A DNA stretch of 49,847 bases, taken from an uncultured Methanosarcinales archaeon. Lineage in GTDB: Archaea > Nanobdellota > Nanobdellia > Woesearchaeales > WJKV01. The translations under genes and the position numbers were made by a program. The stretch is taken from NCBI GenBank assembly GCA_964576505.1, contig CAZNVD010000006.1:741-50587 (forward strand). The letters run 5' to 3'. Shown here one piece after another: positions 14,058-49,847 of this stretch; within the stretch, counting starts at the first letter, position 1; every line of letters begins with the position of its first letter. A model generated the notes under the pieces. That model was not told the DNA's origin and did not search any database. It saw only the letters and a list, made by a program, of their open reading frames with translations.

Positions 14058-14060
14058 CCC

Positions 14061-18453: not shown

Positions 18454-18457
18454 CGTT

Positions 18458-20509: not shown

Positions 20510-21990
20510 CGTTTCACCAATACTGCCCAGTATTGTTTAACCTCATCAACATTAATGACTTTAAACATCTTGAGTACGCAGCAATACACAATCACTCCCC
20601 CGGCAACGCACACAACCAACTCCAAATACGTTTGCAGGCTTATACTTTTCCTCAGCAAATCAATAACAAAAACAAAAATTACTCCACCAACAGCAACCTT
20701 TCCCCAATCAATCCATGGAATCTTTACCTCTACTAATTTTACCAGGTAATAACACGACATCAAAAGCGCCAAGCCATATGACGCAGTAGTTGTAATAGCC
20801 GCCCCTACAATCCCATAAGTAGGAATTAACAATAAATTACCAACTAGATTAAGCCCTGCCGCCACCCCAATAATTATTGTAACAATCTGCGGTTTTCCCA
20901 ACGCTGCAATCACATCTTGATTTATCTTACTCACTGAAAAAGCAATCACCCCTATAAGCAGAATTTTGAAAGCTGAAACCCCACTTACATATTCAGCCCC
21001 GAAAAAAATGCTGATGAAAAGATTTCCATACACAAACACTGCAAGAATCGCGGGCACCAGCACAATAAAAGCATACGTATGAAGCACCCTCACGCACTGA
21101 TTTATTCGTTTCACATCCCCTTTCCCTTTCAGTTCAGATATCAAAGGAAACAAAACAATCGATATAGCTTGGCTTGCAAACAAGAAAAGCAAAGCAGAAG
21201 GAAGCACCACATTATATACTCCCACTTCTTCAAGTGTTCTGTAATAAGTAAGCATCAATGTATCCAGTTGGCTGATTATTCTGCTTCCAATACTTGTAAA
21301 CAACGACGCACTTCCATAAAAAAATAGTTGCTTTGAAACCGCCTTGAAATTATTCATCTTGTGTGAAAACAAAGAAAAGCTTGACAGCATAGGATAAATT
21401 AGCATCACACTAACAGCCAGCCAGCCTGCGATGTGCGCATATATTGGAACATAAACAGATGCACTTGACTTGAACATAATCACAACAACTCCACAAACCA
21501 CCAGCAACCTTACTACCTCGCTGCCTGAAAACCAAACAACTCTCTGGAATCCTTGGGCAGCGCTCCTCAGAAACACCCCAAAAAAGCTGATTAGAATGTA
21601 TACAGCAAATAAATTCACCAGCATTAATGCCTGACTATCTCTGAAAAAATGAACACTCAAATATTCAGAACTGAAATAAAGCGCAACCGCAAATAGTACT
21701 GAAACAATGAGTTGCAAAAGAAACACTGAAACAATCGCAGCTTTAATTTCTCTGTATTTTTTTCCTGCCTTGAATTCAGCAATATACTTTACAAGTGCCT
21801 GATTCAGTCCAAGATCCCTGAAAAACAGAAGAAAGCTGATAAATCCAAATACAGAATAAAACAGTCCATATTCAGCAACAGAAAGCTGCCGTGCCAGAAT
21901 TATGCGAAGAACATATCCAAGTCCACTGGTAGCAATGATTGACCCCATTGCAAACAGCCCGCCGCGAACCGCTTTTTGTCCGTAATTCAT
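20506..21990 (-). CDS. MOP-superfamily oligosaccharide/polysaccharide flippase (Wzx/RfbX-like)
   Basis: 494 aa. It has about 12-14 TM helices. It lies between the glycan-assembly genes and aglB. Confidence 0.7.
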   Translation of the reverse strand: MNYGQKAVRGGLFAMGSIIATSGLGYVLRIILARQLSVAEYGLFYSVFGFISFLLFFRDLGLNQALVKYIAEFKAGKKYREIKAAIVSVFLLQLIVSVLFAVALYFSSEYLSVHFFRDSQALMLVNLFAVYILISFFGVFLRSAAQGFQRVVWFSGSEVVRLLVVCGVVVIMFKSSASVYVPIYAHIAGWLAVSVMLIYPMLSSFSLFSHKMNNFKAVSKQLFFYGSASLFTSIGSRIISQLDTLMLTYYRTLEEVGVYNVVLPSALLFLFASQAISIVLFPLISELKGKGDVKRINQCVRVLHTYAFIVLVPAILAVFVYGNLFISIFFGAEYVSGVSAFKILLIGVIAFSVSKINQDVIAALGKPQIVTIIIGVAAGLNLVGNLLLIPTYGIVGAAITTTASYGLALLMSCYYLVKLVEVKIPWIDWGKVAVGGVIFVFVIDLLRKSISLQTYLELVVCVAGGVIVYCCVLKMFKVINVDEVKQYWAVLVKR

Positions 21991-25000: not shown

Positions 25001-25363
25001 CGCCTCTTTCCTTATCTCATCCATGTACTTATTCTTTAAGTTCACCATCAGTGTTTCATGCGCCCACTGATCAGTTATTGGAAGATAAGTAGAATAAACT
25101 CGGAAATAAATTGCAAAAAACATTGGAATCAATATGAGTAGAATTTGAAGTAATACTAATCCTCTTTTCCCTGAAAAGAAATTTTTAACATGAGCAAAAG
25201 AAAACGCTATCTCTTCAAGATCATCAGACTTACTTTCTGATCCTGATACCTGCTTTAATTCACTCTCGCTTTTTTTCTTACCAAACCATCCTTTTATCTT
25301 TGAGAAATCAAATGTCAGATCATCTTGCTCTGTCGATTTCTGAGGTATATCTTTCCGCTCCAT
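22040..25363 (-). CDS. aglB: Archaeal oligosaccharyltransferase AglB (STT3 family) with C-terminal PpiC/parvulin-type peptidyl-prolyl isomerase domain
   Basis: 1107 aa. It has 13 or more TM helices. EL1 carries LDEYHYYRF, followed by the IPDTD acidic motif, TVAE (a TIXE-type EL5 motif) and WWDFG at residues 641-645 (nt 23429-23443). The last 108 aa are ARHILV...GGDLGWFPRGVMVKEFEDAVF...TQFGYHIIVV, clear parvulin signatures comparable to E. coli PpiC. Confidence 0.85.
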   Translation of the reverse strand: MERKDIPQKSTEQDDLTFDFSKIKGWFGKKKSESELKQVSGSESKSDDLEEIAFSFAHVKNFFSGKRGLVLLQILLILIPMFFAIYFRVYSTYLPITDQWAHETLMVNLKNKYMDEIRKEAPFLPPDAAERQASVKAADEYAANVDKYSEVEKQYSQQYKTKFQDENGQTYLLGLDEYHYYRFIKNYLDHGHPGDELRNGTPYDTHSLAPLGRPVDLNFHVRFSAFWHRFISFFNPGVELMTTFFYIPVLFGALAVIPAFFLAKRISGLLGGFVAALLAGINGTILSRTPAGIPDTDIYQVFFPLYILWLFIEGFESKELRKKIALMSLAGILTGLYAWAWPGYWYILWIIVGTLACYIGYYIIFHIREKNVLAAGTIKRSLISGGVYLGVTAVSVLIFNSWASFKSGLMGPFNFIFHFKNVATFSIWPNVYTTVAELNSASVSAVISQLGGKIMFLIALMGLVLAMTREKIDKFTAILLGASVIWFYVLLSSIPNSVIMFVCLLSVPVVAMVVLSIYMRYTHVDIKYGMLIYFWFAATIYASQSGVRFVLLLAPVYVVAFAACLGIVYQKLVPWLHQQLGIYKWSCQLAVLAFMMFLVVPPVIDANALAYGQIPSFNDAWNDALTAIKDDSQPNAIISSWWDFGHWFKAMADRPVTFDGATQNLPIAHWMGKVLMTENEQEAVGILRMLACGSTKAYDEIDKYVKDDVKSVKVLYRVVQGDKRNAELVLKQEGIDAIAAGDILQYTHCTPPENFFIASEDMVGKSGVWAHFGSWDFNKAAMYKDVHDLERTQGIEVLQEKFNLSPQDASQTYVEIQTTNPDNWISGWPSYLTGWLNCQAPEGVKVRCVMNMQISQDTVLQEIVIDLTNASSTHGLIRGVQGTSVQPVTFAALNVVNKQNISTIRFEQPDINYEILLAPQKDKAGLRIMLTPSELSRSMFTRMFFLEGHTLKYFDQFASKQSITGEDVKVFKVDWSGASITNVFEQMEKPQLEPAKPQLFAHARHILVSSQIIGETEALKKVTEIRAELMKEAYLDFRFFEFAKKYYEGPGSKASGGDLGWFPRGVMVKEFEDAVFNKLAPGQISEPVKTQFGYHIIVVDSVQLRTA

Positions 25364-36122: not shown

Positions 36123-37265
36123 ATGCTTAACATATATGTTCAGTCTAATATTGGAAGTCAGTTAGACAAAACATTAGCCTTTGTCCCCGAGATATTCAAG
36201 TCTACAAATATAGCATTCTTTTTTTTAGTGTGTTTTTCGTTCTTGCTTCTATACTCAATGCTTTTGGTGGTCTTATCAAGATTCACAATGCTTCAAGACA
36301 GTGAAGGAAAAGTAGGCAAATCAGCCACCGTAGTCGCCTTTTCATTATCTGGACTTTCCATTTTAGCAATATTTGCATTCAAACCAAACATTTCAATATT
36401 CTTAGAAGAAACCTTTTCAGGTATCAGAAGTTACATGATTTTTATTCTTGCGATTGGTTGTTTCCTGTCTGTGTACGAATCAGTCCTTCATGCCACCCAG
36501 AAGCGTCATCTAGGTTTCGGTTTTGCATTTTTATCTACTTCATTTCTGCTTTTCACCATCTGGAGTTCAACAAGCAATGTCTGGTTATTTGTTATTGCTA
36601 TAATCTCTTTAATTTTCAGTGGCTTTGTTCTGATATTTAAGAAGTCAGAATCTATGGTTGATCATTTCTCTATGGATCATCCATTTGCATCGTCTTCTGA
36701 CGCAGAGAGAGAAAGAATTATAAGTGAGAATTCTCATCTATTAAAGAGTATGAAAAAGCTTGATGACGCCTTGCGCGAACTTGGAAGAGAATTTGGAAGG
36801 ACTGAAGTACCAACAGCATTCATAAACCGGCTTTCAGATGACAAATTGCGTGAAGCAATTCATACCGTCATTCAATTAACAAATGATTTTCTTGCTGATC
36901 TTGTTACAGTAGAGCGAAGCAACAGAGAAGCCATGGAATTTGTGGGAACTCTTCCTCAACATCCAACTAAGGAACAAGTAGACCAATATCTGCAGACCAG
37001 TCGCGCACATGCCACGAAATATTATTCTGCTGCGGCGTACAGAATTGCGAATGATCAAAAAGAAACAAAATATGCAGAATTGAAAAAAGCGTGGGAAACT
37101 GTTGAGCAGCAACACGCAAGGCTGAGTAGGACAACTGACCTCTCTGCATTTGAACACAATTTCATTATTCCATGGCGCCAAAACATGAAAATGGTAGAAG
37201 CCTATGTTAAAGATAAAGATATTGAAGAAATTGATGAATATTTGAAAAAAATATTAAAATCGTGA
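36123..37265 (+). CDS. Membrane protein (about 5 TM) with C-terminal cytoplasmic alpha-helical domain (hypothetical)
   Basis: 380 aa. The N-terminal half is hydrophobic and the C-terminal half is charged and helical. A TATA-like ATATAAAT lies at 36093-36100. Confidence 0.4.
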   Translation: MLNIYVQSNIGSQLDKTLAFVPEIFKSTNIAFFFLVCFSFLLLYSMLLVVLSRFTMLQDSEGKVGKSATVVAFSLSGLSILAIFAFKPNISIFLEETFSGIRSYMIFILAIGCFLSVYESVLHATQKRHLGFGFAFLSTSFLLFTIWSSTSNVWLFVIAIISLIFSGFVLIFKKSESMVDHFSMDHPFASSSDAERERIISENSHLLKSMKKLDDALRELGREFGRTEVPTAFINRLSDDKLREAIHTVIQLTNDFLADLVTVERSNREAMEFVGTLPQHPTKEQVDQYLQTSRAHATKYYSAAAYRIANDQKETKYAELKKAWETVEQQHARLSRTTDLSAFEHNFIIPWRQNMKMVEAYVKDKDIEEIDEYLKKILKS

Positions 37266-37301: not shown

Positions 37302-38018
37302 TTACTTGTTGTATTCTCTTTTGCACAGATTCCAATTATTTTTAGTATAATCATTCAAACTGTCCCAGATCTCAAGTTTCCGAATTAATTTATCCACATC
37401 TACATCAAATATCTCGTAATATACTGACAGTTCCACAAACACAGTAAAAACACGAATGAAATACGCCTTTAACCACTGTGTATGCAAGAGCACACGCTTT
37501 AGGTGTTGGCTCGTTGTTCCGCTTATTGATGGAACGGGTTGTCTTGTCCGTAAATTGTTCAACTCAGCATTTATTGTTTCAAGTTGAGTAATAATATCTT
37601 GTAAATCTTTAATTTCAGCATTATGTTCTGTGAGCAGTTTCTCTCGTTCTTCTTCAATTGCCTTTTGTACTGCAGCAAGCTTGCTTTTCCCAAATCCAGA
37701 AACTCCTGCTTGTCGTTGCTGAATTGCTTCCTTTCTGAGTTGATCCCCGTGTAAAATAATTCTGATAAATTTGAAATGTTTATGGATCTGTTCAGTAACT
37801 GCGTTTAATTGTCTCGCAAATACATTCAACTCTCCAAGCACTACTTTGGTTTCCTCGCTTGCTTCTTTAGCCTGTTCTCCCGCAGCAGGTAAATCTCCTC
37901 TCAAAGTGTCAAGATGTCCAACAAGTGTTGTGGGATCGAGTTGATGTTTAGGTCCATAGCGCGCAAGCTCTATCTCTCTAACAAAACTCAATAATTCTGT
38001 TCTACTTGTCTTAATCAT
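37302..38018 (-). CDS. Coiled-coil protein (hypothetical)
   Basis: 238 aa with heptad-like charged helices. Its start lies 2 nt downstream of the stop of 38021..38635. Confidence 0.4.
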   Translation of the reverse strand: MIKTSRTELLSFVREIELARYGPKHQLDPTTLVGHLDTLRGDLPAAGEQAKEASEETKVVLGELNVFARQLNAVTEQIHKHFKFIRIILHGDQLRKEAIQQRQAGVSGFGKSKLAAVQKAIEEEREKLLTEHNAEIKDLQDIITQLETINAELNNLRTRQPVPSISGTTSQHLKRVLLHTQWLKAYFIRVFTVFVELSVYYEIFDVDVDKLIRKLEIWDSLNDYTKNNWNLCKREYNK

Positions 38019-38020
38019 AC

Positions 38021-38635
38021 TTATTTACCGCCTAATTCATTTTGAACTGCTGAAATAATGCCTTGTAATAACTTAATAAATTTATCAAAGTTTTTTCCTT
38101 TTTCTTCCTGGATTGTTTCAATAACTTGTGCTGTTTTTTCTATGACAATTTCCGAATTCATATCACTAAGAACTGCAATCATATTTTCAGCAATTGAAGC
38201 TTTCATTTTGTTGATATCTTCATGAGTAGCTTTCTCAAGATCAGCATATACTAGCTGCTGATTCTTTGTAAGTTCTCGGAGAATTTGAGCTTTCATCCTA
38301 TTTTGTTCCCCTGCGCTAAGTTTAGTAAAGTCACTATGTTTTTCAAGTTCTTGGATTTTCTCATCAATCAACTCCATAAGAACATATTCTCTTTTGTAAA
38401 CATAATTTCCATACGCTTGTAAATTTTTATTGAGATTCTCAATAGTTTGTTTTGTATGCTCAACTTTATTAATCGCATCATTTACAGATTCAGCAATAAC
38501 ATAAGTAGTCTGCCGCACTGCAACAACCTGTCCTTCAAGCTCCTCAAGAACTTTGTATTCATTTCCTAATTCTTTAGAAATTTTATCTACTCCTTTTCTA
38601 AATTTATTAACGTACTCTTCAACAGGATCTGCCAT
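38021..38635 (-). CDS. Coiled-coil protein (hypothetical)
   Basis: The track start is TTG 38656. ATG 38635 gives MADPVEEYVNKF... at 204 aa. The sequence is all alpha-helical and charged. Confidence 0.4.
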   Translation of the reverse strand: MADPVEEYVNKFRKGVDKISKELGNEYKVLEELEGQVVAVRQTTYVIAESVNDAINKVEHTKQTIENLNKNLQAYGNYVYKREYVLMELIDEKIQELEKHSDFTKLSAGEQNRMKAQILRELTKNQQLVYADLEKATHEDINKMKASIAENMIAVLSDMNSEIVIEKTAQVIETIQEEKGKNFDKFIKLLQGIISAVQNELGGK

Positions 38636-38723
38636 AATACCCCATCCAAGAACCAAATTCTATTTTTAAGCATTCTCTAACTCAAGAAGATAGCAACTTA
38701 AGAATCAATTTGCAACCCAGAAT

Positions 38724-39842
38724 CTAGAATCCTTGCTTCTCTACGTACGATGCAACAGTCTTTTCCGCTTTCTTCCGTGCTTTATGATGTTTTTCTAAGA
38801 ACTCACTTACCTTCTCAGCAGCAATCTTCTTTAACTCTCCACTGAGCAATTTCCCTGCCTTATACGATAGATAAATCTCTTTCAATGCTTCATCATCTTC
38901 CTCAAGTCCGTAACGCAACATCTGGAAGCTCACATCAATCTCAGGATTTCCACCTTTCTTTCGATGTTCTTCAAGTGTCGCCTGTCCACCAGAGAATGCA
39001 TACTTCATAATTTTCTTGCTCGCTTCATCAGGGCTGTCAGTCAGTGCAATATAGGACATCGGATCAGAAGAACTCATTTTCCCGCCCTTAAGTCCGGGCA
39101 TAAACAGATGATACGTACTACTGAGCTGACAAAAATCATGCACTTTGTACCGTCCACAAATATCCCGCGCTAACCGTATGTGCGGATCTTGATCACTTCC
39201 CACGGGAACAATAACAGGCATCCGTCCTTCAAATTCTGGAAGCTGCGGATGAAACATATCAGCAGCCTGTAAAAGAGACGAGGCCATTTTTCCTGGATCA
39301 ATCTCTCCATACACTGCTTTAAATTCATTAAATGTTGCATGCCGCGCAAGCGTCGAAGCGAGACTGTAATATGCACTCGCCTTCTTACCATCAAGTGACC
39401 GTTTTGACTGGAAATAGAAATCACACTTTTTCAAATCTAACCCGAGAGCAACATAATTCATTAAATATTCTTCAATTGCAATCTTCCGCAATTCCTCCAT
39501 ATTAGGAATCCTGGAATTGTACCCTTCAACATCTGCGACTGTAATATATACGTTAGCCCCAAGCTCCTGATAAAAGATGCATTGGTCCGCCACCATCTTA
39601 TGCCCGAAATGGAATTTACCAGAAGGCATAAGCCCAGTCATCATAGCAAAAGGCTTTTTCTGCTGTACGCATCCAAGAATCCTTTCAATATCTCTATGCG
39701 CAAAAATAATCCCTCTTCTAAATAGAGTCTGCCCTAAAAATTTCTTAGGCAGCTCTGGAAGCTCCTGTAATCCAAATTCCTTAATGAGCTTTTTATAATC
39801 AATAGAACCCTTCACTTCCCATGGCGTAACCTTAGCATCCAT
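38724..39842 (-). CDS. trpS: Tryptophanyl-tRNA synthetase, archaeal/eukaryotic type
   Basis: Conserved sequence starts at MDAKVTPWEVKG.IDYKKLIKEFG, with ATG at 39840-39842. It has the HIGH-type GKFHFGH motif and KMSSS. A TATA (TATATAAA on the minus strand) lies at 39865-39872. The 76 extra N-terminal codons in the track look spurious. Confidence 0.85.
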   Translation of the reverse strand: MDAKVTPWEVKGSIDYKKLIKEFGLQELPELPKKFLGQTLFRRGIIFAHRDIERILGCVQQKKPFAMMTGLMPSGKFHFGHKMVADQCIFYQELGANVYITVADVEGYNSRIPNMEELRKIAIEEYLMNYVALGLDLKKCDFYFQSKRSLDGKKASAYYSLASTLARHATFNEFKAVYGEIDPGKMASSLLQAADMFHPQLPEFEGRMPVIVPVGSDQDPHIRLARDICGRYKVHDFCQLSSTYHLFMPGLKGGKMSSSDPMSYIALTDSPDEASKKIMKYAFSGGQATLEEHRKKGGNPEIDVSFQMLRYGLEEDDEALKEIYLSYKAGKLLSGELKKIAAEKVSEFLEKHHKARKKAEKTVASYVEKQGF

Positions 39843-39916
39843 ACCCTCAGAAGCTTCTTTTGAATTTATATAGTTAATGCTAATAAACGATTCATTAGAC
39901 TCAGTCCAATTTCCGA

Positions 39917-40402
39917 GTGCATAAGCACTTAAATTCCAAAAGCACAGATTATGTTGTGGCTTCAGAAAATGTGCATTTCGATATAAACTATTATTTTGAT
40001 ACTTGTATCTGGCGTGACCATAATGAGAATCGTACTGGAAAAGGTGGAAGACCACTAGGTGAAATTGCAAGCAGGCTCATTATGAAGTTTATCACAGAAA
40101 GGATACCTATTTTATACTCTGAATTCATAACTCGCGAACTGAAAATAGATTATTCTGATGACGAAATAAATGATATGTTCAACATTCTTCATATAACTGG
40201 TAACTTGATTAAAGTGCCGATAAGCAAGCAAATTGTGGAAGAAGCAAGTAAGTTACATAAGGCACGAGGAATATCATTGGGCGATTGTTTGCATGCCCTC
40301 TTAGCTCGCAGCAACAATGATCTTAATGTTACTCAGAATATAAACGATTTCGAAAAGATAGCAGATATTGTTATTTCTAAGAAACCCGAACACTTGCTTT
40401 AA
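39917..40402 (+). CDS. PIN-domain protein (VapC-like toxin candidate)
   Basis: The four acidic PIN positions are plausible: YYFDTC, SEFITRE, LGDCLHA and NDFEKI. The track start is GTG 39917. In-frame GTG 39971 (VHFDINYYFDT) fits typical PIN N-termini better. Confidence 0.6.
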   Translation: MHKHLNSKSTDYVVASENVHFDINYYFDTCIWRDHNENRTGKGGRPLGEIASRLIMKFITERIPILYSEFITRELKIDYSDDEINDMFNILHITGNLIKVPISKQIVEEASKLHKARGISLGDCLHALLARSNNDLNVTQNINDFEKIADIVISKKPEHLL

Positions 40403-40662
40403 ACATCTACATCAAGTTCTTTGGCGATTTGACGTGCAACTTCTTCTCGTGTTTTCCTATTTTCTTCATAAGTAGTTTTTTTGCTTGCCTTCCCTCGAAG
40501 CTTGAGAAATTGTTGAATAAGCTCATCCCTATCTAAATCTGCGAGTTTATCCCTTACTGCCTCTCGAATAAATTCAGTCCTTGAATTAAAATTATTTGTA
40601 GAAATACTTTCATCTATTTTTTTCAAAATATCTTCCTGAAACTTAACACTGACAACTTCCAC
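40399..40662 (-). CDS. Ribbon-helix-helix (CopG/NikR-N-like) DNA-binding protein, antitoxin candidate
   Basis: 87 aa with a GTG start. The N-terminal beta-strand plus two helices are VSVKFQEDILKKIDESI....NSRTEFIREAVRDKL. It is convergent with the PIN gene, and the two stops overlap in TTAA. Confidence 0.65.
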   Translation of the reverse strand: MEVVSVKFQEDILKKIDESISTNNFNSRTEFIREAVRDKLADLDRDELIQQFLKLRGKASKKTTYEENRKTREEVARQIAKELDVDV

Positions 40663-40842: not shown

Positions 40843-41391
40843 ATGACTACAAAAGGATATAATGTTGGTTACGAGTCTGGAGCAGACGGACGCGGACTTA
40901 TCGGTAAAATGGGTGGAATCGGAATGTTATTTGGCTCAGCTTCATTATTTGCAGATGAGAGTGGCCAAAAATTGCAAGACGCATCGCCACAAGCAATAAC
41001 ATGCGAATCTGAGTTGGAAAGATACGTAAAGCTGGTGGACAAAAATACTATTGAGATTGGATTAGACTACTTTTGTAGGATGCAAGACACATTAACATAT
41101 ACAAAAAAAGATGGTCGCCTTTGGAGTCTGGTTCGAAACGAAACTATTGACAACATATTTGGATTTGATTCTGGTTTGGAGAACCGTGGTCTTTGGACAA
41201 TAAATGCTGAGATACATAATGAAAATTGGCATTATGCTTTTAATGGATCTTCGCACGTAATTGCAAGCAAATCGGGTAGTCCGATTACAGTCTGCCTTGG
41301 AGAATTTTTGGTTGGTGATACCAATGATCTTTTGGAATTCCTCAACACATACAAAGATTGCATCCGCACTGGTGATAGCCAAGCAGAATAA
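40843..41391 (+). CDS. Hypothetical protein
   Basis: 182 aa. GGAGG lies 8 nt upstream of the ATG. I recognised no family. It is convergent with the giant-protein operon. Confidence 0.35.
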   Translation: MTTKGYNVGYESGADGRGLIGKMGGIGMLFGSASLFADESGQKLQDASPQAITCESELERYVKLVDKNTIEIGLDYFCRMQDTLTYTKKDGRLWSLVRNETIDNIFGFDSGLENRGLWTINAEIHNENWHYAFNGSSHVIASKSGSPITVCLGEFLVGDTNDLLEFLNTYKDCIRTGDSQAE

Positions 41392-41459: not shown

Positions 41460-44303
41460 CTACCTGCACACAAAATCACTATCACAAGATAATCCAGAAG
41501 CATCACAATCCATATAACTTCCTTTATTGCAGGCTTGATCTCCGCCACAGAAATTATCCCCTACCCCATCATCCCCGCAACACGCACTCCGTGGAATAAA
41601 GAATGTACTCCATTTCACAACCTTGTAACCACACGCAGTACAGCTGTCTTCATCATCATCAGGATCAATCCAACTTCCCGAGGAACAATAACCAGCTGCA
41701 CTACAAGCCCCACTACTATAGCAAGCTCCATCATATACACATCCACTACTAGAATCACAACACGCAGAACTTCCATCATCTCCAACTTTCACAGTTTCTC
41801 CCGCTTGATTCCCGCAACAAGATCTATCTCCTTTCCCACTAAACCAGCTGAATCCGCATGAATTACTTTGACAGGCAGATTGAGACGAATCCAATGAAAC
41901 AATGCTTCCTTCGCAACTCGCGCTCCCCGAATCAGTGTACTTGTAAGTCACACATCCTGAACTCGCACACGTAGCACAATCAATGCTTGATGTCTCATAA
42001 TTACCAGGATTGCTTCCGCTCAATACATAATAATCATACGAGCTGCACGCAACACAATTCACAGTTCCCGAACATCCTCCTGACGAACATCCGCTTTGAC
42101 ATATTCCTGATGTTGTAGACTTCCATGTTGCATCACACACTCCACTTCCAGAAGTAAATTTCTTTTCAAAGCTCTCTCCACCAGCATACATTGTGCAGCT
42201 TGGAGTTCCCATTAACAATGCAGAAGGTCCATTACACTGCTCCACTCCTGCATTATCCGCACATGAAACCTTTTCAAGTACAACATCAAATTCACCATCA
42301 CACATATTTCCTCTTTTCCCTGAACAAGTCCTTGCTACAGAAACCTTCACCAGATCGTTTCTCTCTGCTCCCGTCATTCCTGAAATGAATGATTTCACTT
42401 TCCCAATCTCTGCTGAAGTCACACCTGAAACATAATCTCCCAAACTATCGACAGGGACCAATGGTAAAATATAAACAGTCTGCTCATAACATGGTGTTCC
42501 AGCAGGTGCAACCTTCCATGCAGTATTCAGGTCAGCCGGATCTCCAATACAACATGCATGATCTCCTAAATATGAATCAGTTGTAGTATTACTATATTTA
42601 TCATAAGGACTTGAAACAGCAGCATATGGATAAGGCGGAGAATTAGAGCGATGCGGTACGCATTCATGTATCTCAACATCAAAATTCTCCGTATCTGACG
42701 TTACACTTGATGCAGTTACAGACATTTTATGCATTCCCTTTGTGGACAATCTTCCTGATGGAAGCAAATTGATATCTATCTTCCTATAATCAAGTACATT
42801 AAACGGATGATAGAAACTGCTTGCAAATTCCTCTGTCCCTGAAAAAAACACTACCCCTGCTTCACTCCAGCTATACACAACATTCCCTGGATTAAACACA
42901 TCAACAGTTTGTCCGCTCAGATAATAAGGATCTTCCACTGACCCGTGCCCGAGAGCAATATCCTCATAAATGCTTCTTCCTCCACCTTCAACCTGAATCT
43001 CATCATCAACTAACACTTTAACAGTCTGCCAATCCTCTTGAGTCCCATCACTTATTCTTATCATAAGTTCATGTGGCCCTATATCTCGCCCTTCCACAAA
43101 CACAGAAGCATCCTTTCCGCTCGATTTAAACAAACTTCCCCCTTCCCATGTTTTATCATAAGCAATACCTGTTTTTTCTCTTGTCGCAGTACTCTCATCA
43201 AATATCTCATCATAATCCTGCTTCCATCCTGAGTATGAATATGTTACCGGATCTTCATTAACATCAAATCCATTAGGATTTATTGTCAATGTATTATTTA
43301 CATAAACAACATAATCATACAATGAACTCGAAATCTCCCCCGTAACATAGCTCAACATAGGTGGGAAATCATCCCTCATGAAATAAATCTGCCATGGCTT
43401 TCCATCAATAGTTGACACATTATCACTCACCATTATGAGATCTTTTCCATGCATTACATTTCTGACAATATCAACCTGCATTCCATCTCTATAATGCGGC
43501 AACCGCCTGAAATTATCTTTTACATTGAAATCATAATAAGATGCATCCCACAATAATAGATCATAAAGGAAGCTATACACAGGTTGCAATCGAATCGGCA
43601 ACTCTACCGCAAACCTTTGAGAATAAGTATCAGCACCTCTATATGATGAAAACACAATAGGATATTCAAGATTAACCAGTAGTCTATTGAGTGAAGCCTC
43701 AATCTCCACTGCAATATCACCTTGTTCAGAAGTCGCTTCAAACATTCCAGAAGCATTCATCAATGTTTCAAGATCAACGCATTCATCCACCCGTGCAGCT
43801 ATAGCTTCTTCCAATTGTTTTACAATTGATTCATTTCCTCTATCAAAAGGTTTCAGAAATGACTTCCCGCTCACTTTTCCAATTGGAGAACTAGGATCAT
43901 ACGAATACTTACATCCTGCATCTGAACACGGATATCTTGGCGGAGGCATGTAATCAGGATTGGGTGTCAAAAGAAAAGGAATCGTTGAATTCAGTTTACT
44001 ATAATAAATAGGCACAGGATCAGAACAATCATTCGCTCCACACGAAAGAATCGCCCCATCTTGTCCAGAATAAATATGCATTCCTTGCTTTCCCATTTGT
44101 AACAAAGCATCCTTCACAGATTTATCCCGGCAGCTTTCCACATATTGTTGCAATTGAACACTCTGAATCAGCGCAAGTCTTCCCTGTTCTCCACCTTCTG
44201 TAGTCTGAGACAGCATCTGGCTGAGAAGAATAAGAATAATTCCCATTATTAAGATTACAATTCCAAGAATCATAAACAAACTTACTTGAGATTTAGACTT
44301 CAT
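41460..44303 (-). CDS. Giant extracellular Cys-rich protein with class III (type IV pilin-like) or signal-anchor N-terminus
   Basis: 947 aa. The N-terminus is MKSKS-QVSLFMILGIVILIMGIILILL. The middle has beta-rich Ig/PKD-like segments. The C-terminal region of about 330 aa is packed with Cys (GCSSGGCSG, CVACSS, CATCASSGC, SACCDSSSGC, SACCGDDGVGD). Many N-x-S/T sequons are present. A 1-nt gap separates it from the upstream gene. Confidence 0.6.
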   Translation of the reverse strand: MKSKSQVSLFMILGIVILIMGIILILLSQMLSQTTEGGEQGRLALIQSVQLQQYVESCRDKSVKDALLQMGKQGMHIYSGQDGAILSCGANDCSDPVPIYYSKLNSTIPFLLTPNPDYMPPPRYPCSDAGCKYSYDPSSPIGKVSGKSFLKPFDRGNESIVKQLEEAIAARVDECVDLETLMNASGMFEATSEQGDIAVEIEASLNRLLVNLEYPIVFSSYRGADTYSQRFAVELPIRLQPVYSFLYDLLLWDASYYDFNVKDNFRRLPHYRDGMQVDIVRNVMHGKDLIMVSDNVSTIDGKPWQIYFMRDDFPPMLSYVTGEISSSLYDYVVYVNNTLTINPNGFDVNEDPVTYSYSGWKQDYDEIFDESTATREKTGIAYDKTWEGGSLFKSSGKDASVFVEGRDIGPHELMIRISDGTQEDWQTVKVLVDDEIQVEGGGRSIYEDIALGHGSVEDPYYLSGQTVDVFNPGNVVYSWSEAGVVFFSGTEEFASSFYHPFNVLDYRKIDINLLPSGRLSTKGMHKMSVTASSVTSDTENFDVEIHECVPHRSNSPPYPYAAVSSPYDKYSNTTTDSYLGDHACCIGDPADLNTAWKVAPAGTPCYEQTVYILPLVPVDSLGDYVSGVTSAEIGKVKSFISGMTGAERNDLVKVSVARTCSGKRGNMCDGEFDVVLEKVSCADNAGVEQCNGPSALLMGTPSCTMYAGGESFEKKFTSGSGVCDATWKSTTSGICQSGCSSGGCSGTVNCVACSSYDYYVLSGSNPGNYETSSIDCATCASSGCVTYKYTDSGSASCEGSIVSLDSSQSACQSNSCGFSWFSGKGDRSCCGNQAGETVKVGDDGSSACCDSSSGCVYDGACYSSGACSAAGYCSSGSWIDPDDDEDSCTACGYKVVKWSTFFIPRSACCGDDGVGDNFCGGDQACNKGSYMDCDASGLSCDSDFVCR

Positions 44304-44304
44304 T

Positions 44305-47300
44305 TTATTTTGGCCTCAGTTCTCGCGTAATCGCTCTAAAGAATTCAGGCTTTGGCACAGGAATAAGCGAAGTTGAATCAGCAACTGCAAATACAGTTGC
44401 CTTATCTCCTGACGCTTCACAAATAATAGTATCCTTTGCATGCCCATCGCGACTCTTATCATACGCATTAACTGAAGCACAAACATCTCCACTGAACCCG
44501 CTGAACTGCACTGTGAAATATGAATGAATATCTCCCGACTCAGAAGTCTTCGCTTCTTTCACACTTACAATAGACTTGCTTCCAAACTTAGCAACATAAA
44601 TATCATCAAACACCCTGGCACGGCCAAGAGGGGTTGGCGGAATTTCATGGAATCCAGTTGTCGTCGCTCCAAAGAATGATTTTACTTTCTCAATAATATA
44701 GTCATAAAGGCTTCCTGCGCTTCCAGCTGAAAGTACATCAGTTCCTGAAGGTGCATAAATAAATGATTCAGTTTTATTGTTCCAATAGAAACCCGAACCA
44801 CAATACTTGAAATCAAATTCATCCACGCTTCCTAAACATCCTGAAACATCAAGGTCATAATCAAATGATTCCTTCACAGCAGTCTTTAATGAAATCTGAC
44901 TGGCTTCAGGTATCGACACATCACTGCCCAGCGCATTATAACTTGATCCAATTACAATTTCTCCATCTTTGTTTAGAATGCACAGATTGTTAAACACAGA
45001 TTTGTCAATTCTATTTGTAAACACAGGTGTTATTCCTCCCAGGAATCCTTCAATGTAAGCTTTTTTGTCTTTACCTTCATTCACAAGCACATCATGATAA
45101 GGTCCGCAAGTCAATGTGTAACCATCCTCAAACGATCCCATTAACTTCTGTGCAATAATGTGAGTCCGCGAACTCCATGTTCCTTTATTACAATACAATC
45201 CTTGCACTGAGTTAGATTTGAAATTGCTCTTCTTTACAACACCAGCAATATTTGTTGATCGTGAATACCAAGCACTAGGTTTACACGCACTCGGCACTTG
45301 TGTAGCTGTCTGTCCTACCGCAATACTAGGATCAAGTAAACAACTTTCAGCATCTGGACAGAATCCATACTCACTATCTAACCAGTCCCACTGTAGCTCA
45401 CTCTCAGTCCATTCACCAGCAATGCATCGTGATCCACTTACAACATCTCCTGGTTTAGGTTTACCATCAAGAGTCACTCCAGAAGGCAAACTTCCGCTGC
45501 CAGATACTTCATCTTCCTGCGTCCCTTTACAAGCAGTCCCAGTCCAGCAATCTCCCACACGGCAACATCCAGCAGTTATTCCATCTGGATCAGCAACTTT
45601 ACTGCTTCTTTCAAATGCATAAACAGTTCCTGTAGATACACTATAACTATCATCACTCCATCCATCAGGTCCGCAATAATAACTTCCTTCACCTTCAGCT
45701 CCCCTCACATCACAATCAGAAACCGTTTCAACTATTTTCTTTCCTGTTCCATCTCCTTTATCATCCGTCTCTTCAACATCAAGCACCCACGAATATCCGC
45801 CAACTGCATTACATCCTAACAACTTTCCGCTCACAGCATCACCGAGAACTCTGAATGAAGTTTCATTACTTGTACTGCTTGTAACTTTAATACGATCTGC
45901 TTGCCCAGAGAGCGGAAGTTTCCGTGACGCAAAACAGCTTCCTTTAGTATCAAGATAGAATTCAGATTTATATCCAAACTCAGAATTTACTTCACTATAA
46001 TCATCCCCACAGCATCGGGTTCCAGTCCAGTACATAAGATCTTGCTGACTATCGCATGCTTTTCCACCTGACGCTTCATCATTATCAAGATCAAGTAACC
46101 ATTGCCCTGCACTAAACTCAGTCTGACGACCGCAGAACAATGCACCCTTTGGTTCAGCAAGGAAAAACTGATGTAAATTGATCCGCCCCACATCATCTTC
46201 TGCACTCATCGTGAATTCCGTAATATTCCCAGAAGGCAAGTAAGGTTTAGGAATAATTACATGGTACCATATCCCGCTAAGCACCTCTCTGCTTCCAGTA
46301 TAGAATGAAGACAACGGCTCACTAAAAGTAGTTTTTCCCTTAATAGTAAGAGTAATCAAATCACTTTTCCCAGCATTCTCAAAGAAGATATTGAAATGCA
46401 ACGCATCATATGGTGTCCAGTCAAGAACCTCGGGCTTTTCATCCAGCTTGAGATCAAGATCAGTAAACAGGAATGTGCACAAATCATAAGCACATACATC
46501 TCCTACTTTATTGAACTCATGTAAATCTTCACTAAACGGACTTGGAATGATTTTCCCCCACACAAACCCTGTACTTTCATCATCATCATTCAATTCTTCT
46601 CCACTGCCTGCTGTAAACTTATTGTTTTTAGCAACACCCGCATGACACTCCGCAATCTCTTCTTTAGATGAAGTATAACATACAAAGTCACTATCTTTCA
46701 CATCTTTACAATCAAAAATACTTTCTCCATCACAAGGCTCACCTTCTGAAGAAAATGTATTCCCTTTAGTATACCTCTCACTTAACGAAGAATCATCATC
46801 ACACACAAACCACGATCCTCCATCTCCTCCAAGCACATCATAAACATCTTTAGTATCGCTAATCTCAGTAAACAATGGGAAATCTTTGTAATCTAAAATT
46901 TCAGGATCAAATAAATCAGGCACAGTCTTAACTTCATACACTCCACCAGCACGTACGTGGTCAGCAGGTCTCCATTCCATACGAGTCGTTCCTTCTGCAT
47001 CACACACAAACTGAAGCCCAGTATCATCACTAAATATCAGCCCTTCATCCCCATAATCATCACCACAACAGGCAAGGCTTCCAAAAGTAGAATCCGTAGC
47101 TTCAAGATTTCCTCCCCATGCCCGCTTGGAAGTAAGCGAACTCCCTCCAAATAAAGGATCATACTGACTCCATCTTCCCACCGGACATCCGCGACCAGCT
47201 CCTGAATACTTTATTCCTCCATTACAAAAAATCTCAGAATTATCTGGATTATCAGCTGCATCGCTTCCAGTATCTCCAGGCATATCATCACCGCAACACA

Positions 47301-47676
47301 TCATTCCAGTAGTCATATTATCATCAAACACTGTTGATCTTCCAATATCAGAACTCGCACCATATTTAGCGCAATGATCTTCCACAGAATCAAAATCAAG
47401 AGTATACGCTACACAATACCCGTCTCCAGAAGATGGAATCCCGCTACACCATCCAGATCCACCGTCTGCGCTTGCAAGAACCTTTAAAGGGCCTTCACAT
47501 GAATAGACTGGATCAGCACTTACACTATCTCCTCCTGTTACTGTCTTTGTGAATGGCCTTTCATCACTTTTTCCTTCACCTGTACACATGAGAGTAAGAG
47601 TCAAAGCAGAACTAATTTGAACTATGAGAATTAACATAAATACTCCCGCACCCAACACCCACCATCTTTTACCCAT
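44305..47676 (-). CDS. Giant secreted Cys-rich protein with repeated CCGDD modules
   Basis: 1123 aa. The Sec-type signal is MGKRWWVLGAGVFMLILIVQISSA-LT. Recurring motifs are MMCCGDDMPGD, LACCGDDYGDE and TRCCGDDYSEV. I recognised no enzymatic motif. Confidence 0.6.
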   Translation of the reverse strand: MGKRWWVLGAGVFMLILIVQISSALTLTLMCTGEGKSDERPFTKTVTGGDSVSADPVYSCEGPLKVLASADGGSGWCSGIPSSGDGYCVAYTLDFDSVEDHCAKYGASSDIGRSTVFDDNMTTGMMCCGDDMPGDTGSDAADNPDNSEIFCNGGIKYSGAGRGCPVGRWSQYDPLFGGSSLTSKRAWGGNLEATDSTFGSLACCGDDYGDEGLIFSDDTGLQFVCDAEGTTRMEWRPADHVRAGGVYEVKTVPDLFDPEILDYKDFPLFTEISDTKDVYDVLGGDGGSWFVCDDDSSLSERYTKGNTFSSEGEPCDGESIFDCKDVKDSDFVCYTSSKEEIAECHAGVAKNNKFTAGSGEELNDDDESTGFVWGKIIPSPFSEDLHEFNKVGDVCAYDLCTFLFTDLDLKLDEKPEVLDWTPYDALHFNIFFENAGKSDLITLTIKGKTTFSEPLSSFYTGSREVLSGIWYHVIIPKPYLPSGNITEFTMSAEDDVGRINLHQFFLAEPKGALFCGRQTEFSAGQWLLDLDNDEASGGKACDSQQDLMYWTGTRCCGDDYSEVNSEFGYKSEFYLDTKGSCFASRKLPLSGQADRIKVTSSTSNETSFRVLGDAVSGKLLGCNAVGGYSWVLDVEETDDKGDGTGKKIVETVSDCDVRGAEGEGSYYCGPDGWSDDSYSVSTGTVYAFERSSKVADPDGITAGCCRVGDCWTGTACKGTQEDEVSGSGSLPSGVTLDGKPKPGDVVSGSRCIAGEWTESELQWDWLDSEYGFCPDAESCLLDPSIAVGQTATQVPSACKPSAWYSRSTNIAGVVKKSNFKSNSVQGLYCNKGTWSSRTHIIAQKLMGSFEDGYTLTCGPYHDVLVNEGKDKKAYIEGFLGGITPVFTNRIDKSVFNNLCILNKDGEIVIGSSYNALGSDVSIPEASQISLKTAVKESFDYDLDVSGCLGSVDEFDFKYCGSGFYWNNKTESFIYAPSGTDVLSAGSAGSLYDYIIEKVKSFFGATTTGFHEIPPTPLGRARVFDDIYVAKFGSKSIVSVKEAKTSESGDIHSYFTVQFSGFSGDVCASVNAYDKSRDGHAKDTIICEASGDKATVFAVADSTSLIPVPKPEFFRAITRELRPK

Positions 47677-47707
47677 CTTTTTTTTACTTCTCTTTTTTTT
47701 CTAACTC

Positions 47708-49847
47708 TTAAATCTTAAATTGCGGATTCGTTCCACTACTAGTTTGCTCTTTGTCTGCATCCTGATTCTCTCCTTCAACTGCAGACGCATCTACCTTTGT
47801 ACTATTTTGATAATCATCAAGTGCTGCAAACGCCCCGTCACAGATTTTATCCCTATCATAATCAAAGTCAAACAATCCACTGAAACCATCCATCGCATTG
47901 CCGAATATATGATTAAAAGAATAAATCAGCATAGCAAGATCAGCTGCTCCGCATGCAATACTCCACGGTCCCATTGGACTTGCAGGGAACACTGTATTCT
48001 TTTGATTAGCCAAAATGCATACATCTACATTTTTTCCAACTTGGAATGGTGCACACGCCTTATCTTTTGCCGCCAAAATAAGTCTTGCAGGTAGTTCACG
48101 TACGAAAGCAATTATCTGTGTCATTATTGTCTTAAACAAAAGATATCCTGGAATTAAATGGAACAAAGCTCCACCCCAGAATACACATGTCCTTACTTGG
48201 TGTTCAATATCACATTCTGAAGTCGAAAATCCATAACGTGCATTATCTGAAATACATCTCGCATGAATACATTGAAGATCTCTATATTTGAGCGCATTAT
48301 GAACAACACCTGGAATACATAAACAACCAACTGCAACTGCCCACGAATCAAATGGATTCATATGTACAGCTACATTTACATTTGCAAGATTGTCAAGATT
48401 AAGTGTATCATTTTTGCTAATTCTTTCCTGGAACGCTTCCTTTGACTCTCCTTCAATTGGTGGAACAGAACTTAATCCGATTCCAGATGCAATTTTATCA
48501 TTAAACTCATCAACTATTCCTGTTAATCCAAATCCTTGATTACATTGCGCACACGTTGCAAATGCGCAAACTCGCCTCGCAATTCCTCCAATAGATGCAA
48601 ATCCTGAAGCAGGCGCAGCAGCTTCATTCCGTGCAACTCCGCCGGCAAGAGCTTCGATTCCCGCCTTATCCCAGCTATAAATAAAGTCAGTATCACTTGG
48701 CCACAACACATCCTTAATCTCCTTCACCCAACACTCAAGCGATAGGAATCCTTGCCAGATCCCATTTCCTCCAGAGGTTCCAAGAAGCGACGCAATTACA
48801 TAAACAAGTGGCTTTACTGTTTCAATAATACCATAAACTCGCTGAACAATTTGCATAATATTGCAAATCTTTCTGATGTAAAACAAAATCTGGTCTAATG
48901 TTTCAGCAAGTGAAACCCATCCTTGATCTACACTATCCTTAATATCTTCTAATTTATCGAGCACAGCCTGATCAATCTCTCCCACTGCAACATTATACAA
49001 CTCAAGATTTACCTTAAATTTCTCAATTTCAGGTTTCTTGTATGCAACTCCTCCTGACCGCACCAGCATACTCAATTCACAATCAAATGAAACCTTATCA
49101 AGAAGTGCAGAAGTACTATCTAGAAGCAAAGTAATCACCATGTGCGGATTCAATGTATCCTTTGCAAGCAAATATGGATTATTTCCTTCGCCTTCGTATA
49201 GGAATTCAGTTCCCCCTTCACAATGTAACAGTTTCTCAGAAATCAATGTTCCTGAAGGAACTCGAATAGTTAAAGGCACATAAACTTTAAGTGGAATTGA
49301 TGACGCAACTCTTCGATCAACTCGAGGAGGCTTACTACTTCCAACTGAAACCGAAACCACATTGGGACTAAGTTCAGCCTCAGTCCTGAACACCTGTATA
49401 TTCTTCGAAAAAGTTCCCGAATTTCCTGCAAGATCTTTCAATATGAATGTGACAGGTTCAAGAAGAACTTCATTTCTCACTGAAACTTCAAATGTACAAA
49501 CATTTTTCTTTGTTCCATTTACTGCTTTACAAGTTCCTTCAACAATCCCTTGATCTGAAATCCTGTGCACATCAACAATTGCACTTGAAATATCTTGATC
49601 TTCAACAAAATTAACATCAAACACTAATGGCCTTTCAGCAGAGGGAGCTGGATCATTTTGTTCCACTGATGTTATTTTAGGACCAACTGTATCAATAAAA
49701 ATAAGTTTACTTTCAACTCTGCTATGTCCGAATACATCTGACGCACTCACTTTGATTTCAGCAAACCTGTTTCCAGGAGAAACAACAATATTCTGCCATG
49801 AACACACATTCTCAATACATTTAGTAGGCCGCACAGATTGTCCGGCT
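47708..49847 (-). CDS. Large membrane-associated Cys-rich protein (N-terminus beyond window edge)
   Basis: The frame is open to the window end; the track start at 49834 is only the first GTG. The N-terminal part is beta-rich and Ig-like (IFIDTVGPKITSV...VFDVNF). The C-terminal part has several hydrophobic helices interspersed with conserved-looking Cys pairs (CAFATCAQC, VGCLCIPG, CIHARC). A 31-nt gap separates it from the next gene. Confidence 0.55.
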   Translation of the reverse strand, partial: AGQSVRPTKCIENVCSWQNIVVSPGNRFAEIKVSASDVFGHSRVESKLIFIDTVGPKITSVEQNDPAPSAERPLVFDVNFVEDQDISSAIVDVHRISDQGIVEGTCKAVNGTKKNVCTFEVSVRNEVLLEPVTFILKDLAGNSGTFSKNIQVFRTEAELSPNVVSVSVGSSKPPRVDRRVASSIPLKVYVPLTIRVPSGTLISEKLLHCEGGTEFLYEGEGNNPYLLAKDTLNPHMVITLLLDSTSALLDKVSFDCELSMLVRSGGVAYKKPEIEKFKVNLELYNVAVGEIDQAVLDKLEDIKDSVDQGWVSLAETLDQILFYIRKICNIMQIVQRVYGIIETVKPLVYVIASLLGTSGGNGIWQGFLSLECWVKEIKDVLWPSDTDFIYSWDKAGIEALAGGVARNEAAAPASGFASIGGIARRVCAFATCAQCNQGFGLTGIVDEFNDKIASGIGLSSVPPIEGESKEAFQERISKNDTLNLDNLANVNVAVHMNPFDSWAVAVGCLCIPGVVHNALKYRDLQCIHARCISDNARYGFSTSECDIEHQVRTCVFWGGALFHLIPGYLLFKTIMTQIIAFVRELPARLILAAKDKACAPFQVGKNVDVCILANQKNTVFPASPMGPWSIACGAADLAMLIYSFNHIFGNAMDGFSGLFDFDYDRDKICDGAFAALDDYQNSTKVDASAVEGENQDADKEQTSSGTNPQFKI

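Follow-up and report, generated by a model that had tools for sequence, protein, structure and literature searches.

Large cysteine-rich, probable surface proteins encoded beside a type IV pilin-like gene at a conserved locus of Woesearchaeota and Nanoarchaeota

The stretch of DNA analysed here (the window, 49,847 nt; positions 741 to 50,587 of contig CAZNVD010000006.1, assembly GCA_964576505.1) comes from an uncultured archaeon that GTDB places in the Woesearchaeales. One end of the window, 41460-49847, is filled by three co-directional open reading frames (ORFs) on the minus strand, which we call A, B and C in the order of their transcription. Gene A (47708-49846) runs off the window end after at least 712 codons, and must be 5'-truncated because there is no in-frame stop ahead of that end. 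Gene B (44305..47676) codes for a protein of 1123 aa which is a member of a large unannotated family of Woesearchaeota and Nanoarchaeota, and gene C (41460..44303) for a modular protein of 947 aa with a class III (type IV pilin-like) N-terminus. All coordinates given below for parts of these genes are on the minus strand. The spacers are 31 nt between A and B (47677..47707) and 1 nt between B and C, and the tight packing of the three genes described in an initial annotation is thus borne out. The sense strand of the longer spacer is A-rich; it has no oligo-T tract and is therefore compatible with read-through. A scan for sigma-70 promoters and intrinsic terminators gave chance-level results only, and such models are not applicable to archaea. 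Elsewhere in the window there are clearly archaeal genes (LonB, class II ProRS, transketolase and ribosomal protein S15), and the early assignment to a DPANN-type organism was correct. It was also proposed that all three products are extracytoplasmic, and this is supported.

The cysteine fraction is 2.95% in A, 3.74% in B and 4.65% in C, compared to a mean of 1.19% and a maximum of 2.14% in the 25 other ORFs of the window. This is a 2.5-4 fold enrichment, which makes the original wording, "extremely" cysteine-rich, an overstatement. B has three copies of the exact pentapeptide CCGDD and C has one; the composition of the two proteins leads one to expect 0.0016 and 0.0013 copies. In a six-frame translation of the whole window the looser pattern CCG[DN][DQE] is confined to B and C, and over all the related loci that were fetched (see below) CCG[DN][DEQN] is limited to proteins of the B and C families and to a single giant protein. 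The tripeptide following CC in 160 fetched B-family proteins is GDD 174 times, and the runner-up is seen 10 times. Every CC motif quoted in the initial annotation could be located in B (at residues 127, 203, 555 and 704) or in C (at residues 584, 829, 848 and 908), and family alignments bear out that these cysteines are kept in homologs.

The same annotation spoke of CCGDD modules shared by B and C. What the two proteins have in common is a motif of ~5-10 residues. A hidden Markov model (HMM) of the CCGDD module of B scores B-family proteins only; it gives 6-9 bits to the other two CCGDD sites of B and no score on C or the C homologs. In hhalign the C family against the B family reaches a probability of 6.8%, and A against B 0.2%. 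Domain homology of B and C by way of this module was ruled out on these grounds, and because both comparisons are negative CCGDD must be regarded as a short recurrent element and not as a common domain. Judged from their sequences, A, B and C do not appear to be related to one another. With its vicinal cysteine pair followed by Gly and acidic residues, CCGDD could be a structural knot or a cation-binding turn.

The N-terminus of protein C, MKSKSQVSLFMILGIVILIMGIILILL, is the sole class III-like N-terminus in the window. Residues 1-27 (44223..44303) consist of MKSKS followed by QVSLFMILGIVILIMGIILILL, that is, a putative prepilin-peptidase site ahead of Gln6 and then a hydrophobic H-domain. The H-domain proper, residues 9-27 (LFMILGIVILIMGIILILL), scores -6.9 kcal/mol on the Hessa scale and 3.38 on the Kyte-Doolittle scale; it is uninterrupted and conserved in homologs. 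The N-terminal pattern M[KR]xK[GA]Q[VIM]T is conserved in 7 C homologs, and the Gln at +1 (Gln6 in C) is invariant in a 7-sequence alignment. For comparison, the FlaFind-predicted sites of the Epd pilins of Methanococcus maripaludis read RA|QI, KG|QV, KG|QV, KG|QL and KG|QI, and a conserved +1 Gln, which is needed by EppA, characterizes the EppA substrates (PMC4371748). The C family agrees with this form, having K[GA]|Q[VIM][TS] and then ~20 hydrophobic residues. The site in the C of the window is K-S and then Q, and so has Ser at -1, where the FlaFind criterion is [KRDE][GA] and the seven homologs have K-[GA]-Q. As two small pilin-like genes of a related locus (L012) also have KS|Q, Ser at -1 appears to be tolerated in the lineage. 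The resemblance of this N-terminus to a class III or pilin-like signal, pointed out at the start, has gained strength, since 8 homologs conserve it and related loci have nearby small pilin-like genes and an adjoining A24 peptidase.

Behind its N-terminal helix C can be divided into two parts. Residues 28-435 (42999..44222) comprise, according to homolog alignments, a family-conserved N-terminal domain and an Ig/PKD-like domain (NED...GW...DG.Y.D.Q), and this part is kept in short C homologs of 351-427 aa. Residues 545-947 (41463..42671) form a clade-specific Cys-rich extension, recognized from motifs and homolog comparison; of the 44 cysteines of C, 35 are in the last ~400 aa. CCIGD (42540-42554), CCGNQ (41805-41819) and CCGDD (41568-41582) all lie in this extension, which also holds CCD. 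The CC[IL]G and CCG[DN]D motifs are kept in the homologs of loci L001 and L006, and the homolog of L013 also has a C-terminal CCGDD.

Protein B begins with a Sec-type signal peptide, MGKRWWVLGAGVFMLILIVQISSA (residues 1-24, 47605..47676), seen in the hydropathy plot and as a helix of residues 2-23 in the AlphaFold2 (AF2) model; the Sec signal first ascribed to B is thus present. A k-mer-prefiltered protein search with B returned one relative, P0002, with 33% identity. Exhaustive HMMER searching with a B+P0002 profile returned 596 cluster representatives at E<=1e-3, 431 at E<=1e-10 and 31 at E<=1e-30, and the prefiltered search badly under-reports the family relative to this. Profile searches of metagenome contigs with B and A alignments gave no relatives, and genome contigs gave one. 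The named members of the family are entered as "hypothetical protein" of metagenome-assembled genomes (MAGs) of Candidatus Woesearchaeota or Nanoarchaeota; one member is labelled Bdellovibrio, which we take to be mis-binning. Lengths vary from 800 to 2300 aa, and accessory domains (LamG, PA14, CBM_4_9, PKD, MopE), of kinds typical of adhesins, are found in some members. Somewhere along the chain, one member matches CBM_4_9 and one a Tenm3 galactose-binding-like model.

Common to the family are the C-terminal ~590 aa, residues ~540-1123 of B. From profile match ranges, alignments and the AF2 model we delimit the conserved core as residues 536-1123 (44308..46071), with ~20 near-invariant cysteines. 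In 35-37 members C541, C555, C556, C655, C668, C705, C710, C716 and C751 are invariant, and further along the chain C773, C779, C798, C829, C857, C899, C947 and C959. Among the Cys clusters of the family the best conserved is CC-x4-CW-x-G-x2-C at residues 704-716 (45529..45567), and C704, C705, C710 and C716 are kept in >=90% of 111 B-family sequences. The third CCGDD of B belongs to a 4-Cys mini-module (residues 536-586, 45919..46071) which alignment and HMM find family-wide, with the pattern C-x(8-13)-W-[TS]-G-x2-CCGDD-x(n)-E-[FY]-[FY]-x-D-x4-C-[WFY]. The other two copies lie closer to the N-terminus: the first (residues 127-131, 47284..47298) is in a low-confidence region of the AF2 model and is kept in close homologs, and the second (residues 203-207, 47056..47070) is part of a CCGDDYGDE that is identical in P0002. 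The B of the window is the top match of the family and has all invariant columns.

The AF2 model of B was built on a 61-sequence alignment and has a mean predicted local distance difference test (pLDDT) of 78.9 and a predicted template modelling score (pTM) of 0.61. Residues ~185-1123 are mostly at 85-95, and residues 25-180, including the first CCGDD, are below 50. Residues ~370-515 (46132..46569) form a beta-sandwich, a putative jelly roll of the carbohydrate-binding module (CBM) or galactose-binding-like type, with strands between 399 and 507 at pLDDT ~90; its limits were set from the strand pattern, the Foldseek output being without query coordinates. Foldseek against PDB gave local matches only, over ~140-200 columns, to beta-jelly-roll carbohydrate- or galactose-binding-like domains: CBM28, CBM22, CBM16, CBM61, a gingipain adhesin domain and the receptor-binding domains of iota-toxin Ib and CDTb. 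The probabilities of these matches are 0.9-1.0, the template modelling (TM) scores normalized to the target 0.35-0.47 and the root mean square deviations 5.5-12 Å. B has no Pfam CBM match. Whole-chain TM scores do not exceed 0.09-0.10 against either PDB or BFVD, where the same generic jelly-roll domain was found and nothing more. The ~590-aa Cys-framework core has no structural match in PDB or BFVD; it should be noted that the query was the whole chain, and that per-domain similarities can escape such a query.

A jelly roll in B, and CBM_4_9, LamG and PA14 in its relatives, would also suit a capture system like the bindosome, in which class III-signal proteins, tethered to the surface like the sugar-binding proteins of Sulfolobus, and the CBM-bearing B bind environmental polysaccharide or other nutrients for uptake and not a host cell. 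Some archaeal surface proteins which are not pili, the bindosome subunits processed by PibD, do use class III signals (PMC4371748). We find such a system improbable for this cluster, as in none of the loci does an ABC transporter, a solute-binding-protein fold or a glycoside hydrolase occur beside B-C, and as B and C are Cys-knotted and exceed binding proteins 5-10 fold in size.

Ten further independent loci with a B homolog were fetched from JGI, ENA, Logan and NCBI (L002 turned out to be a duplicate of L001). The identity of their B proteins to that of the window goes from ~33% down to ~21%. Downstream sequence is readable in ten loci (the window, L001, L006, L007, L008, L009, L010, L011, L012 and L013), and in all ten a gene with a class III-type N-terminus is found directly behind B or within two genes of it. 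These N-termini (MRKAQVTMFIILGII, MRKAQVTLFIILGII, MKKAQVTEFIIIGIV, MKRGQVTFFIIIGII, MKHKGQMTFFMIVAI, MKQKGQITFFIIIGL, RRKGQLTVFMIAGIL, MLRRAQISVFIIIGIL) have the pattern M-K-x-K-[GAS]-Q-[VIM]-[TS] followed by a hydrophobic helix. Eight of the ten genes are homologs of C detectable by BLAST (E 1e-118 to 2e-6); the first ~430 residues are common to them, the Cys-rich tail is variable or missing, and their lengths are 351-1079 aa. The B-C pair is usually followed by a giant Cys-rich protein of 2000-3250 aa with CarboxypepD_reg repeats, and behind the giant protein two or three small pilin-like genes are seen in L001, L011, L012 and L013, with the N-termini MKAQVQATVVIYVLAVVIAG, KKAQITGQVFIYILALIIF, MKKKSQIAGQIFIWILAIF, MKKSQISIQFHWIFILVAG and MKRKGQVKMFESIAVLIIFF. 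No giant Cys-rich protein is encoded in the window. Just upstream of B, and divergent from it, there is a Peptidase_A24 gene of 340-360 aa in L001, L013 and, as a partial gene, L010; the A24 proteins of L001 and L010 are 41.5% identical. The usual address of the cluster is after MCM-TBP-(NifS-NifU)-ThiI-(Lit)-RNase P p30, and this is a core-genome address, not an island. The expectation that the three genes would co-occur in the same order in homologs was right for B followed by C and wrong for A-B-C as a unit: of the 10 related loci with a readable upstream flank, 9 have no A beside B.

From these data we propose a conserved surface cluster of DPANN archaea in which type IV pilin-like proteins are the organising element and B and C form the core. 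We give this proposal an even chance of being right; the most likely form of it is a pilin-anchored adhesin complex. C would be made with the class III signal MKSKS|QVS and a hydrophobic helix of ~21 residues. An A24-family prepilin peptidase encoded elsewhere in the genome would cleave it ahead of Gln6, and the N-terminal helix would then hold C in the membrane or allow it to be built into a short pilus-like fibre together with small pilin-like subunits. The globular N-domain, the Ig/PKD-like domain and the Cys-rich distal module would be displayed outside the cell, which would make C a "modular pilin". B would be exported by the Sec pathway and provide the ligand-binding part with its CBM-like jelly roll and a ~590-aa core stabilised by disulfides or metal. 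Lacking an anchor, B is most likely kept on the cell through binding to C or to the fibre. The third secreted component, A, would be specific to the lineage and co-transcribed upstream of B, with an Ig-repeat stalk and a helical Cys-containing head. The role of the complex is likely to be adhesion, most plausibly to a glycan-rich host-cell envelope, and host attachment is a plausible idea.

Several observations weigh against this proposal. The Ser of C at -1 replaces Gly or Ala, and C and all seven aligned sequences have Phe instead of Glu at +5 (an invariant F10); a +5 Glu is said to accompany EppA substrates (PMC4371748). No Pfam pilin or class III family (e.g. PF04021, PF07790) matches C, a C homolog or 8 pilin-like neighbours at E<=5. 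The 49.8-kb window has no A24 prepilin peptidase by tblastn or Pfam. In L001 and L013, moreover, the A24 gene is the first gene of a His-Xaa-Ser operon (HxsB 456 bits with a cut-off of 370, HxsD 61 with a cut-off of 50) and may serve that system, so that A24 is linked to C by neighbourhood only. A PilB/ArlI-type ATPase or TadC/PilC was found neither in the window nor within +-10 kb of B in any locus, and the binding of B to C is purely something we infer. Finally, a fixed place by housekeeping genes (RNase P p30, ThiI, TBP, MCM), together with ubiquity, suits a structural envelope component equally well.

This last point leads to the main alternative, in which B and C make up an S-layer or envelope pair of two components, with B as the outer "canopy" and C as a membrane-anchored stalk whose signal-anchor is uncleaved or trimmed. 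The logic would be like that of SlaA/SlaB of Sulfolobales, and the giant Cys-rich proteins would add to the envelope as well. It would explain why the pair is so common in the group and keeps, in most loci, to one fixed place in the core genome, why the large and anchor-less B always adjoins an N-terminally anchored partner, why there are no type IV pilus (T4P) motor genes nearby, and why lengths (800-2300 aa) diverge with the speed usual for envelope proteins. Cys-containing S-layer-like proteins in archaeal T4P loci were described by Makarova et al. (PMC4858521), and the giant neighbour faintly matches, at the level of a domain, the model of an anammox S-layer glycoprotein (36 bits, cut-off 1400). 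We nevertheless hold this alternative to be somewhat unlikely. What is conserved at the N-termini is a cleavage-type motif, [KR]-[GAS]-Q, and not a generic anchor, and the pair is accompanied by several small pilin-like genes that share the motif and by an A24 peptidase. No S-layer structure is among the listed Foldseek PDB matches of B, and sequons are not enriched in these proteins (see below), whereas archaeal S-layer proteins are usually heavily glycosylated.

The giant proteins are encoded at 15870-22355 in L001, 17596-23528 in L006, 11256-20125 in L007, 17647-23922 in L009, 15729-22283 in L011 and 15336-21293 in L012. They are secreted, have 3.4-5.8% Cys, in most cases CarboxypepD_reg, and often "GCC" straight behind the signal peptide. 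The His-Xaa-Ser stretches headed by A24 are at 4930-9922 (-) in L001, 6409-9916 (-) in L013 and 2-370 (-) in L010, where they separate RNase P p30 from the B homolog and are divergent from B; the complete system consists of the radical SAM protein HxsB, HxsD, an HxsD-like protein, an HxsA3-like repeat protein and a second radical SAM/SPASM enzyme. In L011 there are radical SAM/SPASM and U32-peptidase genes upstream of B. The MCM helicase genes of L006 (2786-6172, -) and L008 (2594-6265, -), both Woesearchaeal contigs, are interrupted by inteins (Intein_splicing, LAGLIDADG_3).

The sole detectable homolog of protein A, P0004, has 47% identity at 96% coverage, is 1171 aa long with a signal peptide, and exceeds the A fragment of the window by ~460 N-terminal residues. 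In the locus fetched via this homolog (L003, GCA_964595605.1) a B homolog is again found behind the A homolog, after a gap of ~33 nt. Another gene of L003, 1-468 (+), ends 10 nt inside the start of the A homolog; its product has the C-terminus GVYEITGQYISNEGF and no detectable relative. Because of this overlap the operon probably reaches upstream of A past the end of the window. An HMM search did not find A in any other B locus, and A is without relatives in IMG/VR, JGI metagenome contigs, phages and plasmids. As A is missing from the other B loci, it is regarded as a lineage-specific addition, and the conserved unit as B+C rather than A-B-C.

The AF2 model of A was built on a 2-sequence alignment; pLDDT is 38 overall and below 50 in the C-terminal 560 residues, and the Foldseek result is informative for the Ig part only. 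This part, residues 1-150 (49397..49846), the only one to reach pLDDT ~55-80, was modelled as tandem Ig-like beta-sandwich domains, and Foldseek matched it to tandem Ig/adhesin-extender repeats (6xi3, LAG3, GhpA), so that the Ig-like N-terminal domains postulated for A are borne out. Residues 290-712 (47711..48979) are a Cys-containing C-terminal region, predicted as helical in a low-confidence model from two sequences. The alignment with P0004 has many invariant columns here, including 14 Cys, and the helices of these ~420 aa have pLDDT <50 and are moderately hydrophobic. This C-terminus was at first described as multi-transmembrane and A as a membrane base. It has no convincing transmembrane helix: the best 19-mer is at +3.9 kcal/mol on the Hessa scale, on which the N-terminal helix of C is at -6.9 and the signal peptide of B at -0.5 kcal/mol, and Kyte-Doolittle gives one marginal segment only. 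The multi-transmembrane base was rejected on these two scans, and the absence of A beside B in most related loci is a second point against such a role.

The searches for known families were uniformly negative. A, B and C match zero families in Pfam and NCBIfam (E<=1) and in PHROGs (E<=0.1), and there is no HMM family match for P0002, P0004, the C homolog of L001 or the conserved parts of 35 B-family members. Single-sequence and profile searches of A, B and C against PDB sequences gave nothing meaningful. This agrees with the first impression that no characterised family explains the three proteins. In the literature searched on CCGDD, on Cys-rich surface proteins of DPANN and on pilins of Woesearchaeota, no account of the motif or the family was found. 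With archaeal fusexins and class II fusogens (FsxA/HAP2-type) A and B have no PDB sequence match, and none of their listed Foldseek matches is fusexin-like, the C-terminal 560 residues of A being modelled below pLDDT 50.

It could be argued that the proteins derive from a virus or mobile element, as receptor-binding proteins, fusogens or toxins, or that they are artefacts of assembly or gene calling. A is very rare, with one homolog, and its helical, marginally hydrophobic, Cys-rich tail is of a kind found in membrane-active proteins; B has weak Foldseek matches to receptor-binding domains of binary toxins and to CBM domains of phage fibres. These matches are limited to one generic jelly-roll domain, and there is no PHROG match. 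The viral or mobile origin was rejected after searches of IMG/VR with A and B and tblastn of P0004 against INPHARED phages and PLSDB plasmids, in which the only match was to an Ig domain at 13% coverage. GC content and GC skew of the cluster are continuous with the remaining contig. The B-C and A-B orders recur in independent JGI, ENA, Logan and NCBI assemblies. The probability of this whole group of explanations is very small.

A more far-reaching version of our proposal is that the cluster encodes an undescribed, DPANN-specific surface organelle, a short, pilin-anchored "grappling" complex, cross-linked by disulfide, thioether or metal, which recognises the host cell and holds it. Its parts would be B, the modular Gln+1 pilin-like C, the giant Cys-rich protein and the small pilin-like proteins, and some lineages would add the A24 peptidase, radical-SAM/SPASM (His-Xaa-Ser) maturases or A. 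The core of B would then be a new fold, and the helical Cys-rich tail of A might be membrane-active at the host contact or at a cytoplasmic bridge. Such an organelle in its entirety must be called unlikely.

N-glycosylation was considered because N-x-S/T sequons in A, B and C had been thought to make them clients of a nearby AglB-parvulin gene. The sequons number 3, 4 and 6 in A, B and C, and shuffled sequences have means of 4.2, 5.2 and 6.0; there is no enrichment. The client hypothesis thus has no specific support, the counts being equal to the shuffle expectation. The idea of a special sequon load was abandoned, and so was the link to the AglB-parvulin gene, with sequons at chance level and the loci 16 kb apart. 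That gene itself (22040-25363, -) codes for a fusion of 1107 aa, in which an AglB/STT3 oligosaccharyltransferase (159-600) is joined to a C-terminal PpiC-type parvulin peptidyl-prolyl isomerase (998-1100). Next to it, at 2410-21990, lies a glycan-biosynthesis cluster of ~20 kb with four GT4 and one GT2 glycosyltransferase genes, a PMT_2-like gene, a polysaccharide deacetylase, a PIG-L deacetylase-GT4 fusion, three SAM methyltransferases, an asparagine synthase and a Wzx/MATE-type flippase.

The 3' end of gene C is convergent with a 182-aa ORF at 40843-41391 (+), one of the sizeable ORFs of the window without a Pfam family; the others are 36123-37265 (+), 37302-38656 (-), 587-2413 (-) and 6159-7889 (+). 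A little further away a PIN-domain ORF (39917-40402, +) and a ribbon-helix-helix/CopG ORF (40399-40662, -) are convergent, with a 4-nt overlap of their 3' ends, which is not the usual orientation of toxin-antitoxin genes. There is also an overlap of the PIN ORF with the over-extended TTG start of an adjoining 448-aa ORF (38724-40070), which by eye we took to resemble an aminoacyl-tRNA synthetase.

The pilins for one clade of nanoarchaeal T4P ATPases were not identified by Makarova et al. in 2016 (PMC4858521). Host recognition and attachment in DPANN archaea such as Woesearchaeota are largely unknown, and the locus provides a concrete, testable set of candidates. Pilin-type surface systems with large adhesins are already known. 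What is new is the B family, with ~600 clusters, no family model and a core without a structural match; the obligate pairing with Gln+1 pilin-like proteins that bear a very large Cys-rich cargo; and the fixed genomic address across Woesearchaeota and Nanoarchaeota, which makes the cluster easy to spot in any MAG. If the link to pilins is true, the "modular pilin" principle would extend to archaea and to a Cys-rich cargo of up to ~1080 aa; if the S-layer interpretation is true, missing envelope proteins of the group would have been identified. In addition, the locus would supply antigens and targets for cryo-electron tomography, proteomics and host-range studies of enrichment cultures.

In the S-layer of Sulfolobales a large, anchor-less secreted protein, SlaA, is combined with SlaB, which is anchored by a C-terminal transmembrane helix. 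B and C resemble them as an adjacent, co-directional pair at a stable chromosomal position. The difference is that C has a pilin-type helix at its N-terminus and that the pilin-like neighbours have no equivalent in SlaA/SlaB; no similarity of these to B or C was seen in the PDB sequence searches or among the listed structural matches. The domains of CBM16, CBM22, CBM28, CBM61, iota-toxin Ib and CDTb superpose locally on one ~140-aa domain of B, with 8-17% identity, and this domain makes up only ~13% of the protein.

Pilins are roughly 70-150 aa in length. The Epd pilins of M. maripaludis (EpdA-E), processed by EppA, are like C in having a short basic n-region, Gln at +1, which in the Epd pilins stands behind [KR]-[GA], and a hydrophobic helix (PMC4371748). 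The clustering of several such genes is another likeness, and in some relatives an unusually long A24 peptidase (340-360 aa) adjoins. C differs from them in its length of 947 aa, its Ser at -1 and its Phe at +5, in having no Pfam pilin match and in the lack of an assembly ATPase or platform gene in its neighbourhood.

Archaeal T4P loci also encode large non-pilin adhesins, for which Makarova et al. infer a position at the pilus tip (PMC4858521). PilY1 of Pseudomonas and the DUF2341 proteins of methanococcal T4P loci are such counterparts of B: B is likewise a large, Sec-secreted non-pilin beside pilin-like genes, with a putative domain of the ligand-binding type. They differ in that neither DUF2341 nor the PilY1 beta-propeller nor a von Willebrand factor A (vWA) domain was detected in B, and its ~590-aa core has no counterpart in them.

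A likeness to the proposed design of C is found in PilB of Streptococcus sanguinis, one of the modular pilins established in bacteria, in which a vWA adhesion module is grafted onto a pilin module (PMC8179133). The two are unrelated in sequence, and the modules of C are Ig/PKD-like and Cys-rich instead. By analogy with PilB, C might be incorporated into a pilus. In C, too, a class III signal and a pilin-type helix are fused to large modules, and the conserved N-domain with its variable, clade-specific Cys-rich extension (351-1079 aa in the family) fits a modular design of this kind.

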